Source of the DNA: an uncultured Methanosarcinales archaeon
Lineage (GTDB): Archaea; Nanobdellota; Nanobdellia; Woesearchaeales; WJKL01
Length of the DNA: 64,000 bases
Assembly (NCBI GenBank): GCA_964521755.1
Contig: CAZFSZ010000002.1
Location: 7,549 to 71,548 of the forward strand
Direction of reading: 5' to 3'
Each line of letters opens with the position of its first letter. The first letter of the stretch is position 1. The translations under genes and the position numbers were made by a program. The notes under the pieces are model-generated. The model was not told the origin of the DNA, made no database searches, and saw nothing but the letters and a program-made list of their open reading frames with translations. Below, one piece after another: positions 11,595-63,741 of the stretch.

Positions 11595-11653
11595 TTCTTT
11601 ATTATTTTTATTTTATTAATTCTTGAAAGCTAAATAAAGATTTTCCCAAAAGT

Positions 11654-11663
11654 TTTTAAATAT
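11654..11663 (+). promoter_or_regulatory. TATA box (TTTTTAAATA) ~25-30 nt upstream of the tRNA gene
   Basis: A/T TATA-like element at the expected spacing from the tRNA 5' end (11687). Confidence 0.35.
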
Positions 11664-11686
11664 CTATCTTATTCTTTTAAGATTAC

Positions 11687-11846
11687 GCGGAGGTGCCGGA
11701 GTGGCCAAATTAGCCAAAAGCTAAGGCTTAACGGGGCAGACTCAAGGCATTTGAGTGTTGAGTGCTCATCTGAGTGCGATGAAAAGACCATTTGTAAGTC
11801 ATCTGCTGGCTTAGTGCCTACAGGGGTTCGAATCCTCTCCTCCGCA
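11687..11846 (+). tRNA. tRNA-Leu(CAA) candidate with two introns (D-loop intron ~11710-11731; canonical 37/38 intron ~11748-11801); CCA not encoded
   Basis: Acceptor GCGGAGG/CCUCCGC plus discriminator A. T-arm AGGGG-UUCGAAU-CCUCU. Class II variable arm UGGCUUAGUGCCUAC. D-arm CCG-GAGUGGCCAAA-CGG once a 22-nt hairpin insert (UUAGC-CAAAA-GCUAA..) is removed. Anticodon stem GCAGA/UCUGC is split by a ~54-nt insert right after the loop CUCAAGG. Mature length would be ~84 nt. Confidence 0.6.
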
Positions 11847-11961
11847 TCTAAATTAAAACAGATAGGGGCGTTCGTGTGATTTTATATCACACAAAACTCA
11901 CCACAAGATGATAAGGATAAAATCCTTGTGTGGGAATCCTCTCCCCTGCATTTTTTACAAT

Positions 11962-12432
11962 ATGAACAATGCAACTCTATGCCTGATAATAGACGAAAAG
12001 TCCAAAAAGATACTTCTGGGAATGAAAAAACGCGGTTTTGGAAAAGTCAAGTGGAATGGTTTTGGAAGAAAGCCTGAAAAAGGGGAAGATATTCATGATG
12101 CTGCAGTCAGAGAAACAAAAGAAGAGGCAGAATTAGATATATCAAGAAAAGATATAAAAAAGATAGGAAAACTAAACTTTAATTTTTCAGCCAAACCTGG
12201 ATGGTATCAAACTGTACATCTATTCATGGCAAAAACATGGCAGGGCTCTCCCAAAGAAAGCGAGGAGATGAAACCTAAATGGTTTGAATTCAAAAAAATC
12301 CCATTTGAAAAAATGTAGGAAGATAACAAACATTGGCTGCTTCTTGTATTAAAAGGAAAGAGCATCAAAGGAAATTTCATTTTTGAAAAAGATAACAAGT
12401 CTATCAAAACACATTCTATAAAAGAAATTTGA
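11962..12432 (+). pseudogene. 7,8-dihydro-8-oxoguanine triphosphatase (MTH1/NUDT1-like Nudix hydrolase) interrupted by in-frame TAG at 12316-12318
   Basis: LLGMKKRGFGKVKWNGFGRKPEKGEDIHDAAVRETKEEAELDI matches the MTH1 core and Nudix box. After IPFEKM the frame hits TAG, then continues in frame as EDNKHWLLLVLKGKSIKGNFIFEKDNKSI, matching MTH1 ...[30 protein letters not shown]. The stop therefore sits at a conserved Trp (TGG to TAG). A readthrough gene or a sequencing error are also possible. Confidence 0.55.
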
Positions 12433-12479: not shown

Positions 12480-13811
12480 ATGTCAATAGAAATAACTACT
12501 GTGGGTGGCTATAATGAAGTAGGAAAGAACTGCACTGCAATAAAAGTGGATGATGCTGCTGTAATATGTGATATGGGTGTTTTTCTGGAAAATTACATCA
12601 AATTGACCGAGGATGAAGATATTATCAATATTTCTACATCTAAATTGATGAAAGCAGGAGCTGTTCCAGATATATCTGCAATAGAAGACTGGAAAAAATA
12701 TGTTAAAGCTATCATCCCCAGCCACGCTCATCTTGACCATGTTGGAGCTATTCCTTTCCTGGCAAAAAAATTCAAAAAAGCAGAATTACTTGCGACCCCT
12801 TACACTACAGAAGTTATCAAAGCTATTCTTAAAGATGAAAAGATGTCTATTCCTAACAAGATTAAAACTCTTAGCCCCAATTCTGTTTATCAGATAAAAA
12901 AGGGCGTCAAAGTAGAGTTTATAAATATGACACACTCCACTGCCCAGGCTGCAATGCTTGCTGTTCATACAAAAAAAGGAATAATACTCTATGCAAATGA
13001 TTTCAAATTTGATTCTACCCCTACTATGGGTAAAAAGCCCAATTTCAATATCCTAAAAAAAATAGGGAAAAAAGGTATTCTTGCATTGATTGTTGATTCT
13101 ACTTATGCAGCAAAAAAAACAAAGACCCCATCTGAAGCAGTTGCCAAAGAAATGTTGAAGGAAGTCATGCTTGGAACAGAATCAAAAGGAAAAGCAGTGG
13201 TTGTAACTACTTTCTCATCTCACTTGGCCAGATTAAAATCAATAATTGAATTTGGGAAAAAAATGAATAGAAAAATCCTTCTCATTGGGAGGTCTCTTGC
13301 AAAATATGTAAAAGCAGGGGAAAATGTAAATATAATAAATTTTTCCAAAGATATTAAGATATTGAAATACAGGAAACAGATAGAGAAAGAGTTAAGAAAA
13401 GTAAACAAAAACAGAGGAAAATATCTACTGATTGTAACAGGTCACCAGGGAGAACCAAAAGCAGTCCTTTCAAGAATCGCCAAAAAAGAGTTTCCTTTCC
13501 ATCTCAAAAAAGGAGACCAGGTTATATTTTCTTCTTCAGTAATCCCAACAAAAATCAACCAGGAAAACAGGGAAAAATTGGAGAACTTTATCAAAAAACA
13601 GAAGGCAAGAATATTCAGGGATGTCCATGTTTCTGGCCATGCTGCCAGAGAAGATTTAAGAGATTTAATAAATATGGTCAATCCAAAGCATATAATCCCT
13701 GCCCACGGAAACCAAGAAATGAGAAAAGCCTTGTTTGATTTGGCAATAGAAATGGACTATAAAAAAAATAACATTCACCTTTCTAAAAATGGCAATAGAA
13801 TAACAATCTAA
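12480..13811 (+). CDS. rnj: ribonuclease J (archaeal beta-CASP metallo-beta-lactamase RNase)
   Basis: HAHLDHVGAIP (HxHxDH) and beta-CASP region, ~445 aa; the likely start is MSIEITTVGG at 12480. Confidence 0.75.
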   Translation: MSIEITTVGGYNEVGKNCTAIKVDDAAVICDMGVFLENYIKLTEDEDIINISTSKLMKAGAVPDISAIEDWKKYVKAIIPSHAHLDHVGAIPFLAKKFKKAELLATPYTTEVIKAILKDEKMSIPNKIKTLSPNSVYQIKKGVKVEFINMTHSTAQAAMLAVHTKKGIILYANDFKFDSTPTMGKKPNFNILKKIGKKGILALIVDSTYAAKKTKTPSEAVAKEMLKEVMLGTESKGKAVVVTTFSSHLARLKSIIEFGKKMNRKILLIGRSLAKYVKAGENVNIINFSKDIKILKYRKQIEKELRKVNKNRGKYLLIVTGHQGEPKAVLSRIAKKEFPFHLKKGDQVIFSSSVIPTKINQENREKLENFIKKQKARIFRDVHVSGHAAREDLRDLINMVNPKHIIPAHGNQEMRKALFDLAIEMDYKKNNIHLSKNGNRITI

Positions 13812-57729: not shown

Positions 57730-57772
57730 ATAAAATTATTAAAATCTTTGATTTATATAGCTTATGGGTAAA

Positions 57773-57842
57773 TGTCCAGTGACCAGTGGTTATCTGGACT
57801 CTTACGCTCTGTCCAGTGACCAGTGGTTATCTGGACTCCTAC
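57773..57842. repeat. two tandem copies of a ~33-nt hairpin-forming repeat (TGTCCAGTGACCAGTGGTTATCTGGACTC..TAC)
   Basis: Exact 29-nt cores at 57773-57801 and 57810-57838, period 37. Each contains the inverted repeat GTCCAG...CTGGAC. Lies 45-115 nt upstream of the Cas4-like gene start. Confidence 0.85.
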
Positions 57843-58098
57843 CCTTATATATTAAATTATAAAATCAAAACAATAAATCTTAAGTTTGCATTGAAAAGTT
57901 CTCCGTCTGTGTTAGGTGCCTGCACGATGTGCGACTCTTCGCTATTGCCAATTATTGCACAGCAATAATGGCATGGTCAGACGTAGCTGGCTGGGTTGCC
58001 ATACTTTAGTGGGGCGTTCCAGTCAGCGAAGTATGAAAATTTTCAATGCGACCATCTTAAAGAAACCTTTTTATACTATTTGCCTAAATAATACTTTA

Positions 58099-59109
58099 AT
58101 GGATATCAAAGAAAAATTGGACCTGATAAAAAGAAACACCCAGGAGATTGTTACAGAAAAAGAACTAGAAAAACTTCTAAAGACAAAAAAACAGCCTTCT
58201 GTTTACTTGGGGGTTTCTATAACTGGAAAACCTCATATCGGTTATTTTATGTGGGTTCTGAAACTTTCTGATTTTCTTAAAGCTGGATTCAATGTAAAAC
58301 TTTTGCTTGCAGATATTCATGGAGCCCTGGACAACACCCCGTGGGATTTGCTTGAAAACAGGTTAAAATATTATTCAATCGTGATTCCCGCCATGTTTAA
58401 ATCGATAGGCGCTGATATAAAGAACTTTGAGATTGTAAAGGGCTCTGATTTTCAGCTAGGTAAGAAATACACGATGGATGTATTGAAGATTGCTACTTAT
58501 GCTTCTGTACATGATTGTAAAAAAGCTTCTTCAGATGTAGTAAAGCAGGCAGAGTCTCCAAAATTATCTGGTCTTATATATCCCATAATGCAGGCACTGG
58601 ATGAGGAGTATCTCAAGGTAGACATACAGTACGGCGGAATAGATCAAAGAAAGATATTGATGTTTGCCAGAGAATATCTTCCCAAGATAGACTACAGACC
58701 TAGAATTGAGGTGATGACCCCTTTGATTCCAGGACTTACTGCCTCAGGAAAGATGTCTGCCTCAGAAAAATCTTCAAAAATAGATCTGCTTGATTCAGAA
58801 AAAGATATCAAGAAAAAGATTAACTCAGCATACTGTCCTGAAGGAGAAATTAAAGAAAATGGTGTTTTAGCTTTTGTGAAACATGTAATATTCATGATTA
58901 AAGAAGATTTCATAATAAACCGCCCTGAAAAATGGGGAGGGGATCTTTCCTACAAAAACTACAAAGAGCTTGAAAAAGACTACAAAGAAAAAAAGCTGCA
59001 CCCTATGGATCTTAAACAAGCATTGGCAAAAGAGATCAATGAATTGGTAAAACCAATAAGAAAAGCTGTTAAAGGAAAAGAATCATTGATAAAAAAAGCA
59101 TATCCATAA
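58099..59109 (+). CDS. tyrS: tyrosine--tRNA ligase (archaeal/eukaryotic type)
   Basis: Class I pattern: ...YLGVSITGKPHIGYF (HIGH-like) and KMSASEKSS (KMSKS). The ORF-track start 57916 is an upstream in-frame extension; the true start is likely MDIKEKL at 58099. Confidence 0.85.
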   Translation: MDIKEKLDLIKRNTQEIVTEKELEKLLKTKKQPSVYLGVSITGKPHIGYFMWVLKLSDFLKAGFNVKLLLADIHGALDNTPWDLLENRLKYYSIVIPAMFKSIGADIKNFEIVKGSDFQLGKKYTMDVLKIATYASVHDCKKASSDVVKQAESPKLSGLIYPIMQALDEEYLKVDIQYGGIDQRKILMFAREYLPKIDYRPRIEVMTPLIPGLTASGKMSASEKSSKIDLLDSEKDIKKKINSAYCPEGEIKENGVLAFVKHVIFMIKEDFIINRPEKWGGDLSYKNYKELEKDYKEKKLHPMDLKQALAKEINELVKPIRKAVKGKESLIKKAYP

Positions 59110-62895: not shown

Positions 62896-63741
62896 TCAAG
62901 AAATAACCTTAAAATCCACACACAGCCTATACTCTCTTGGACCTACTTGCCCGCATTTCACTGTCCTTAATATCCTGCACCTTTTCTTTAATTTTCTGCA
63001 GGCTTCCTTAACCTTTTCCTTTGCAAGATCTATATCTTTTTCATGCTCAAAATCATAGAAATGTATCCTTCCGTCCTTTTTTGCTGCTTTCAGTGCAATA
63101 TCCAAGAACCCTTCCCCTTCCTTGGGCAGAGGCATCAAAATCCTGTCAAACTTCTTCCTTAGCCTGGGAACAACCATCCTTACATCACCGTTGTACAGCT
63201 TAACTTTCCCCTCTAACTTGTTTAGCTTTATATTTTCTTCTGCATATGCATGTGCAGCAGGATTTATCTCAACCCCATAAACTTCTTTTACATCTGTATT
63301 CTTTGCTATAACAAGACAATATGGCGCAACTCCTGAAAACATGACCAGCACTTCCTCGCCTTTCTTTATCTGTTTCATTATTCTTTTTCTTTCTGTGCTT
63401 AACCTTACTGAAAAATAAACCTTCTCAATATCCAGCTTTATCTCTACATTGTTCTCTTTGTGCACTGTTTCTTTTCTGTCTTTCCCAGCCAAGATAAACA
63501 TCTTTTGGATTCTGTATATTCCCTTGTGAATCCCGGCTTTCTTGACCACAACATTGATATTTTTGTGCAGGTTAAGCAGGGTTTTTGCAATGATCTTCTC
63601 CTTTTTCTCTAGTTCGGCGGGAATTTCAATTATTGCTATATCCCCTACCATATCATAGCTTGTAACAACTAAAGAAAGCTCTTTCTTGCTTAATTTATTC
63701 TTTAATGCTTGTTTTAAACTGGTTGGTTTTTTCTTTTTCAT
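62896..63741 (-). CDS. Trm5/Taw2-like class I SAM-dependent tRNA methyltransferase (Met-10+ family)
   Basis: VLVMFSGVAPYCLVIAK (SAM-binding DhFAGhG-like), VEINPAAHAYAEENIKLN (NPxA motif), C-terminal Cys residues. Confidence 0.6.
   Translation of the reverse strand: MKKKKPTSLKQALKNKLSKKELSLVVTSYDMVGDIAIIEIPAELEKKEKIIAKTLLNLHKNINVVVKKAGIHKGIYRIQKMFILAGKDRKETVHKENNVEIKLDIEKVYFSVRLSTERKRIMKQIKKGEEVLVMFSGVAPYCLVIAKNTDVKEVYGVEINPAAHAYAEENIKLNKLEGKVKLYNGDVRMVVPRLRKKFDRILMPLPKEGEGFLDIALKAAKKDGRIHFYDFEHEKDIDLAKEKVKEACRKLKKRCRILRTVKCGQVGPREYRLCVDFKVIS

Follow-up and report, generated by a model that had tools for sequence, protein, structure and literature searches.

The window, the 64-kb stretch of DNA analysed here, carries on its forward strand a tRNA-Leu(CAA) gene of 160 nt (11687-11846) that is interrupted by two bulge-helix-bulge (BHB) introns. 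The parts of a class II tRNA that an earlier note had reported as readable at this site are confirmed from the sequence, namely a 7-bp acceptor stem (GCGGAGG/CCUCCGC), a T-arm (AGGGG-UUCGAAU-CCUCU), a variable arm with a stem of its own (U GGC UUAGU GCC UAC) and the discriminator A73, with CCA not encoded. U8, A14, G18G19, U33 and the GUUCGAAUC T-loop can also be read. The coordinates of the gene parts and the intron positions in related genes are collected in Table 1.

The host is a low-GC DPANN archaeon whose best named protein relatives belong to Candidatus Woesearchaeota. The earlier note had pointed to an archaeal context, which is borne out by the Woesearchaeota relatives of the window's proteins and tRNA and by the presence of an RNase P RNA of archaeal type. 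The RNase P RNA (Rfam RF00373, 115 bits) lies at 1628-1973 on the reverse strand and adjoins a THUMP-domain methyltransferase ORF (1989-2879). The host lineage is probably mesophilic.

Table 1. Parts of the tRNA-Leu(CAA) locus in the window and intron positions in the orthologous genes.
Feature	Position	Strand	Description
TATA-like box	11653..11662	+	TTTTTAAATA, about 25-35 nt upstream of the gene, read from the sequence
Exon 1	11687..11708	+	Acceptor 5' strand, U8 G9, D-stem 5' strand, D-loop to A21 (GCGGAGGUGCCGGAGUGGCCAA)
Intron 1	11709..11730	+	22 nt, D-loop, position 21/22 by BHB geometry
Exon 2	11731..11746	+	A22, D-stem 3' strand, G26, anticodon stem 5' strand, C32-G37
Intron 2	11747..11800	+	54 nt, canonical 37/38, hBHBh' form, outer helix is the anticodon stem
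K-turn-like hairpin in intron 2	11758..11786	+	UUGA, GUGCUC AUCU GAGUGC, GAU, GA, AAAG
Exon 3	11801..11846	+	A38, anticodon stem 3' strand, variable arm, T-arm, acceptor 3' strand, A73
104-bp insert relative to closest relative L011	11847..11950	+	Directly 3' of tRNA-Leu(CAA)
Window gene and L011			Introns in D-loop (22 nt) and at 37/38
L019 and L021			Three introns: D-loop (50 nt, same site as in the window), 30/31 and 37/38
L013, L014, L015 and L018			Introns at 30/31 and 37/38
L020			Introns at 37/38 and in T-loop (59/60)

Anatomy and in silico splicing of the gene

Deletion of the two introns leaves an 84-nt class II tRNA in which every stem is paired, and ARAGORN, run on this spliced sequence with its intron option off, calls it tRNA-Leu(CAA), the isotype and anticodon proposed in the earlier note. 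Exon 2 ends in C32 U33 C34 A35 A36 G37, with the anticodon CAA at 11743-11745, and the predicted junctions join GGCCAA to ACGG at intron 1 and CUCAAG to AUCUGC at intron 2. A long variable arm, A73 and a Leu anticodon are identity elements for LeuRS, and the window gene combines a long, stemmed variable arm with A73 and the Leu anticodon CAA. Upstream of the gene, the TATA-like box is likely an archaeal promoter, as judged by its position and conservation; a similar (A)CTTTTTTAAAC / TTTTTAAATA box is found at the same distance upstream in the orthologous loci.

BHB motifs at the two introns

The standard geometry of a BHB motif is a 4-bp helix between two 3-nt bulges, each of which is cleaved after its second nucleotide, and this geometry was applied to both inserts. 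For intron 1, the central helix is formed by GGCC (11703-11706, that is, G18 G19 C20 C20a) and GGCU (11725-11728) with 4/4 positions paired, the bulges are AAA (11707-11709) and UAA (11729-11731), and a 5-bp inner helix, UUAGC (11710-11714) with GCUAA (11720-11724), encloses the loop CAAAA. As there is no outer helix, this is the HBh' form, a minimal BHB hairpin. The MFE fold of the whole 160-nt precursor gives exactly this helix-bulge-helix, and when the 22 nt of the intron were shuffled, 1 in 200,000 shuffles matched the 4/4 central helix and 5-bp inner helix in register. By sequence alone the boundaries of intron 1 could be drawn at three places, from 20b/21 to 22/23, all with the same product. 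The closest relative, L011, keeps the intron, with one C-G pair of the inner helix changed to U.G.

Intron 2 has a relaxed BHB. Its central helix, CUCA (11741-11744) with UAAG (11795-11798), is paired at 3/4 positions with a C34.A mismatch, its bulges are AGG (11745-11747) and UCA (11799-11801), its inner helix has 2 bp (CA, 11748-11749, with UG, 11793-11794), and its outer helix has 6 bp, made up of the anticodon stem and G26.U44. This motif is weak when taken by itself, being equalled by 2.2% of shuffles, so that the comparative data carry the case. Across nine orthologues, 96% of the cells in the intron 2 BHB are paired, and sliding of the partners lowers this to 17-47%; in the inner helix, covariation between C-G and U-A is seen at the first pair, and the position of the window's C34.A mismatch is a C-G pair in five orthologues, through UGAG in L018 and UGGG in L013, L014, L019 and L021.

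The earlier note had proposed a 22-nt intron in the D-loop and a canonical intron of about 54 nt, and had named the junctions as the place to look for BHB motifs. The BHB scan and the clean cloverleaf of the spliced sequence agree with both introns, and a BHB or an accepted relaxed form is found at the junctions of each: intron 1 passes cleanly as HBh', and intron 2 passes in relaxed form, with one C.A mismatch in its 4-bp central helix, at a position where five of the nine orthologues have a full pair. The site class given for the canonical intron was right, with one correction to the loop, which had been read as CUCAAGG; the intron follows CUCAAG at 37/38, and A38 closes the loop.

What standard tRNA searches report

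In its default mode ARAGORN found no tRNA in the whole 64-kb window, and Rfam models at the gathering threshold matched nothing but the archaeal RNase P RNA; a permissive Rfam scan of 11600-12000 gave noise only. With introns allowed, ARAGORN places a tRNA-Leu at exactly 11687-11846 on the unspliced sequence. The use of this program as a check thus upholds the isotype and the ends of the gene and departs from the earlier note in the anticodon and intron structure, since it reports Leu(AAG) with one 63-nt intron and poor D- and anticodon stems. As ARAGORN models only one intron, it arrives at Leu(AAG), and for the same reason the call does not refute two introns. A further ARAGORN model with a 43-nt intron (intron 1 alone removed) was rejected for its poor stems, and a low-stringency tRNA-Gly(CCC) that overlaps the 3' end of the Leu gene and the element downstream of it was dismissed as spurious.

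Apart from tRNA-Leu(CAA), no convincing tRNA gene was found in the 64 kb by ARAGORN, with introns on or off, or by a scan for T-arms with acceptor strands. This scarcity reflects either a low local density of tRNA genes or the presence of more disrupted genes (e.g. with T-loop introns) that escape these searches.

Elsewhere in the window, a 28-nt palindromic unit (GTCCAGTGACCAGTGGTTATCTGGACTC) occurs twice in tandem at 57770-57835. It is followed, at 57900-58035, by about 135 nt of GC-rich sequence with strong folding (z about -3 on either strand) that overlaps the doubtful start of an ORF at 57973-59109. This folding stretch has no Rfam match and may represent a small RNA that has escaped annotation or an RNA gene with heavy disruption.

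Orthologous genes in related archaea

Scanning of genome and metagenome collections with the 3' end of the gene led to tRNA-Leu(UAG) genes of Woesearchaeota type. One of these, in L010, is intronless, and its first 27 nt and last 40 nt are those of the spliced window gene, including the junction GGCCAAACGG. Exon 1 and the last 40 nt of exon 3 are therefore each identical to the matching part of an uninterrupted gene; outside the anticodon arm the spliced window gene is the same as this Leu(UAG) gene, whose D-arm GGCCAAACGG is as predicted for the spliced product. Other Leu(UAG) genes are interrupted: those of L004 and L005 have a canonical intron of 13 nt whose CUUA/UAAG central helix is free of mismatches, that of L001 has a D-loop intron at a different site, and that of L003 has an intron in the anticodon stem. 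A tblastn comparison of window proteins with the loci found by the tRNA 3'-end pattern showed no synteny, and an exact look-up of the window PCNA gave no match.

The neighbouring RNase J gene (12480-13811) has an identical copy on the public contig L012 and many relatives, of which the named ones are from Candidatus Woesearchaeota. In the contigs of nine relatives the gene order is kept as small ORFs, tRNA, an optional gene, RNase J and PCNA. The tRNA slot is occupied by Leu(CAA) in eight of the nine and by an intronless Leu(UAG) in L016.

These eight orthologues and the window gene all splice in silico to 84 nt and are all called Leu(CAA) by ARAGORN (9/9). Their spliced alignment is gapless, with 207/207 cells of the cloverleaf paired and 8 pairs changed on both sides, while pairing falls to 35-58% when the partners are slid; as the nine orthologues belong to two or three lineages, the covariation counts represent few independent events. 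All 20 introns of the nine genes fit one BHB register with 3/4 or 4/4 pairs in the central helix, and at 30/31 the central helix of the intron covaries with the exon (GGAU/AUCC, GGGC/GCCC, GGCC/GGCU). In L011, whose RNase J is 86% identical to that of the window, a single substitution (G57A) separates the 84 exon positions from those of the window gene; 6 differences fall in the introns (about 77 positions), and the 90 nt upstream have diverged by about 40%.

The three-intron genes lie at L019:1265-1480 and L021:1467-1682 and have, besides the D-loop intron, introns of 31 nt at 30/31 and 51 nt at 37/38. The D-loop intron has a long inner helix, in which compensatory changes (AG/CU to GU/AC) separate these two genomes. 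The gene at L020:1987-2157 has its T-loop intron in place of a D-loop intron. Between the three-intron gene and RNase J, L019 carries an ORF resembling a LAGLIDADG-type homing endonuclease (1768-2379), in a slot that in the other loci holds a NUDIX gene, a methyltransferase gene or nothing.

A K-turn-like hairpin within intron 2

Intron 2 is not free spacer. In 9/9 orthologues the canonical intron contains the arrangement ..UGAGUG-N-NGA, G-stem-loop-stem-C, RAU, GA, AA.., which matches the K-turn consensus: on the bulged strand the C-stem is followed by three loop nucleotides and then GA, on the non-bulged strand GA is followed by the C-stem, and a G-C pair closes the stem. Pairing within the stem is complete (100%), and two of its pairs change on both sides between the two intron subfamilies. 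The Leu(UAG) introns of L006/L008 and L003 show this arrangement too; its chance of appearing in a shuffled intron is 0.2-1%. From this pattern we infer that the hairpin forms a K-turn, and binding of L7Ae to it is plausible.

Just 5' of the hairpin in the window gene, UUGAGU (11751-11756) is complementary to A31-A36, and an upstream UGAGU complementary to A31-A35 is invariant in the nine orthologues. In all nine, C34 faces the fifth nucleotide before the NUGA (D'-like) box, a register like that of a C/D guide. A box C/D guide RNA has terminal C (RUGAUGA) and D (CUGA) boxes, internal C' and D' boxes, and guides of about 10-12 nt. Intron 2 departs from this plan in having one K-turn-like motif (UUGA...GAUGAAA), 6-7 nt of complementarity and no terminal C/D box pair. 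A reading of CUGA...GAUGA as the D'/C' boxes of a full C/D RNA was rejected for want of the terminal pair; the 'CUGA' of intron 2 belongs to the 3' strand of the hairpin and is CUGG in L011, where the pairing is kept. The Leu(UAG) intron of L006 has the K-turn and no matching guide. With no terminal C/D pair, a duplex of 6-7 bp and an L006 intron that lacks a guide, a role in methylation guiding is doubted, and the idea that intron 2 might direct methylation of C34 is a long shot that draws on analogy.

The analogy is with the pre-tRNA-Trp intron of Haloferax volcanii, which, as cited in PMC7994747, is a box C/D guide for Cm34 and Um39. According to the account given there, the two share a canonical-site intron with a K-turn-type motif; unlike that intron, the window intron lacks the terminal C/D pair, has a guide duplex of 6-7 bp and places a hairpin of 16-19 nt between its D'-like and C'-like halves.

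A tRNA-derived element downstream of the gene

The 104-bp insert that follows the gene (Table 1) lies between two imperfect copies of an 18-nt direct repeat that corresponds to the tRNA 3' end (11830-11847 and 11934-11951, 16/18 identical), for which 0.04 matches are expected by chance. The insert contains a hairpin, GUGUGAU/AUCACAC (11874-11892), and a degenerate K-turn-like hairpin (11908-11933), and it folds better than shuffles (z = -3.1). An oligo-T, terminator-like run (11951-11956) follows the second copy of the repeat and not the tRNA. In L011, which has no insert, the tRNA runs straight into CTTTTT and then the NUDIX gene.

A fuller element follows Leu(CAA) at L013:2324-2440, L015:2862-2970 and L018:1088-1196, and the start of one follows the Leu(UAG) of L010 at the contig end; L011, L014 and L019-L021 are without it. 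It consists of a hairpin, a K-turn-like hairpin and a copy of the variable-arm 3' strand, the T-arm and the acceptor 3' strand. The K-turn-like hairpin has the form GUUGA, UAAGG..CCUUA, UGY, GA, AGU, with a compensatory change of GGGC/GCCC against GAGC/GCUC. The acceptor strand copied in L015 and L018 does not match that of the adjacent tRNA (UCCCCUC vs UCCCCGC, swapped between the two genomes). As the 5' part of the element in L015 and L018 resembles the start of the canonical intron (GCUUUUGAGRGUUGA vs GCAUUUGAGUGUUGA), its sequence suggests that it arose when part of the intron-bearing gene was duplicated. The T-stem 5' strand and the second G.A pair are missing from the window copy, which therefore looks like the decayed form of a K-turn/tRNA-3'-end module of which relatives have intact versions.

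No Rfam match was obtained for the intact L018 copy or for the region of the window copy, and two scans of the element core against viral contigs gave no match, which leaves a virus-derived att remnant unsupported. The element was also rejected as a second multi-intron, split or permuted tRNA, as neither strand offers a 5' acceptor strand. Fusions of tRNAs with small RNAs are a known arrangement (2017 study cited in PMC7994747). As such fusions are described in that source, the element resembles them in having a K-turn small RNA directly 3' of a tRNA, where it could be released by tRNA 3' processing, and differs from them in having no C/D consensus and in ending with a copy of the tRNA's own 3' part.

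Taken together with the intron hairpin, these sequence features allow a wider and doubtful proposal, which we put forward tentatively: the canonical introns of woesearchaeal Leu genes may recruit L7Ae through the K-turn. In Leu(CAA) the anticodon-complementary segment might thereby be set in place for 2'-O-methylation of C34, as a minimal half-mer C/D-like guide, or L7Ae might act as a chaperone of BHB folding; the related downstream module of several Leu genes would then be a new family of small RNAs derived from this intron-bearing tRNA.

Alternative readings of the locus

The sole ARAGORN call on the unspliced locus amounts to a different gene, a tRNA-Leu(AAG) whose one intron would span 63 nt (11727-11789) and whose variable region would be long and unstructured. 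It would have a D-stem with one Watson-Crick pair, a mismatched anticodon stem and a 'variable arm' of about 22 unpaired nucleotides, whereas the two-intron model pairs every stem and is conserved over nine orthologues, and ARAGORN is limited to one intron. To our knowledge, A34 anticodons are unusual in archaea, which also counts against Leu(AAG), and its probability is next to nil. The gene could instead be the same one with slightly displaced introns, intron 2 lying at 38/39 (loop CUCAAGG) or intron 1 being shifted by one base. The three equivalent choices for intron 1 leave room for this at the level of sequence, but the BHB is present in the 21/22 register only (4/4 central-helix pairs and 5 bp in the inner helix, against 0-1 central-helix pairs for the other two shifts), and for intron 2 only 37/38 gives a 7-nt loop ending in A38 together with a BHB, on which the nine orthologues agree. 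Displaced boundaries are accordingly very improbable.

Other readings accept the cloverleaf and dispute its processing. The inserts might be retained as expansion segments, or be removed without EndA (e.g. by self-splicing), yet they are too short for group I or II introns, no Rfam intron family was matched, and they come and go among orthologues around a fixed 84-nt body. A 22-nt hairpin in the D-loop would, moreover, disrupt the contacts of G18/G19 with the T-loop, and we give retention or EndA-independent removal only a minute chance. More can be said for a decaying pseudogene, in which the inserts are disruptive and no tRNA is made: standard tools are blind to the gene, the central helix of intron 2 has a mismatch, and a decayed tRNA-derived element lies directly downstream. 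Against this, the window gene and L011 have near-invariant exons between divergent flanks, compensatory changes keep every stem paired over nine orthologues, the TATA-like box is conserved, the gene fills a conserved syntenic slot, and every insert has a BHB in the right register, so that decay is improbable. A split or permuted tRNA gene was ruled out, the window gene being colinear and complete, and no 5' acceptor strand matching the downstream 3'-end copy was found nearby. It is highly probable that 11687-11846 encodes a functional tRNA-Leu(CAA) in a DPANN archaeon of Woesearchaeota type, with a precursor containing two protein-spliced BHB introns.

Proposed maturation of the precursor

For this functional gene, a precursor of about 160 nt or more carrying both introns would be transcribed. 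Both BHBs could be formed simultaneously, because intron 1 is local to the D-loop. EndA, the tRNA-splicing endonuclease, would then cut the four bulges, each after its second nucleotide, an RtcB-type ligase would join the three exons, and trimming of the ends by RNase P and RNase Z with addition of CCA would give an 84-nt class II tRNA with G37 and A73. We infer the enzymes, the order of cleavage and the excision itself from what is established for archaeal tRNA splicing. As a Pfam scan of 10 window ORFs turned up no EndA, the EndA step in particular rests on the DPANN literature; the remaining ORFs were assessed by their size and N-terminal sequence, and neither EndA nor RtcB was recognised in the window. 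Intron 1, as an HBh' motif with no outer helix, would need an endonuclease of broad specificity, in keeping with the reported requirement of HBh' introns outside the anticodon loop for such enzymes (PMC5829648). Marked disruption of tRNA genes is recorded for DPANN lineages with L3-loop EndA in the same survey, which includes a Woesearchaeota genome (PMC5829648).

The window also has an ORF for a methyltransferase of the Trm5/TYW2 family (62896-63741, reverse strand). Members of this family act on G37, with Trm5 making m1G37, and tRNA-Leu(CAA), having G37, is a possible substrate.

Relation to known disrupted tRNA genes

A close known parallel is the pre-tRNA-Glu(UUC) of Methanopyrus kandleri, in which an HBh' intron in the D-loop is combined with a canonical BHB intron at 37/38 (Kaneta et al. 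2018, PMC5829648), the same pair of intron types within one gene as in the window. M. kandleri, unlike the window's host, is a euryarchaeon with an (alpha-beta)2 EndA, and its gene is of Glu isotype (PMC5829648). Its exon 2 starts at A21, which puts the D-loop intron at 20/21, whereas that of the window gene is at 21/22 by BHB geometry; and while cleavage of the M. kandleri D-loop intron is known, and known to depend on endonuclease specificity (PMC5829648), the window gene is known from its sequence alone.

The earlier note had associated multiple introns, some at non-canonical positions, with certain archaea, and this is already described (PMC4090602, PMC5829648). As many as three BHB introns per gene are known from Thermoproteales/Crenarchaeota and from other archaea (Sugahara 2007/2008; Yoshihisa 2014, PMC4090602), and the 2014 review lists sites including 20/21, 22/23, 30/31 and 59/60 with rapid gain and loss between relatives (PMC4090602). 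The orthologue series presented here is similar in its use of the D-loop, 30/31, 37/38 and 59/60, and differs from the Thermoproteales genes so described in belonging to low-GC DPANN/Woesearchaeota and in showing four intron sites in one orthologous gene over nine genomes. Within the DPANN superphylum, which the window gene shares, disrupted tRNA genes have been described together with a broad-specificity EndA, the epsilon2 enzyme of ARMAN-2 (PMC3239211), and broad-specificity enzymes are also found there as L3-loop alpha4 forms (PMC5829648). Multi-intron genes, the sites concerned, pairs of D-loop and canonical introns and heavy disruption in DPANN are thus already on record (PMC4090602, PMC5829648, PMC3239211). 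The Leu(CAA) gene, its orthologue series and the K-turn motif of its intron are not described in the available text of the literature on DPANN tRNA disruption (PMC3239211, PMC5829648). The present analysis adds to this record the four-site orthologue series, the K-turn-like hairpin that is conserved within the canonical intron, and the downstream module derived from the tRNA.

Implications

The locus provides an example of essential DPANN tRNA genes that are missed by default tRNA finders and by Rfam, and such missed genes bear on inferences of completeness and codon usage for reduced DPANN genomes. With one orthologous gene in a fixed neighbourhood and four intron sites, including a three-intron version, the nine-genome series is a compact natural data set on the gain, loss and movement of BHB introns, and its intron sites show the substrate range that is required of this lineage's endonuclease. 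The K-turn-like hairpin and the downstream module, finally, are leads on L7Ae-linked tRNA processing beyond the classic case of tRNA-Trp.
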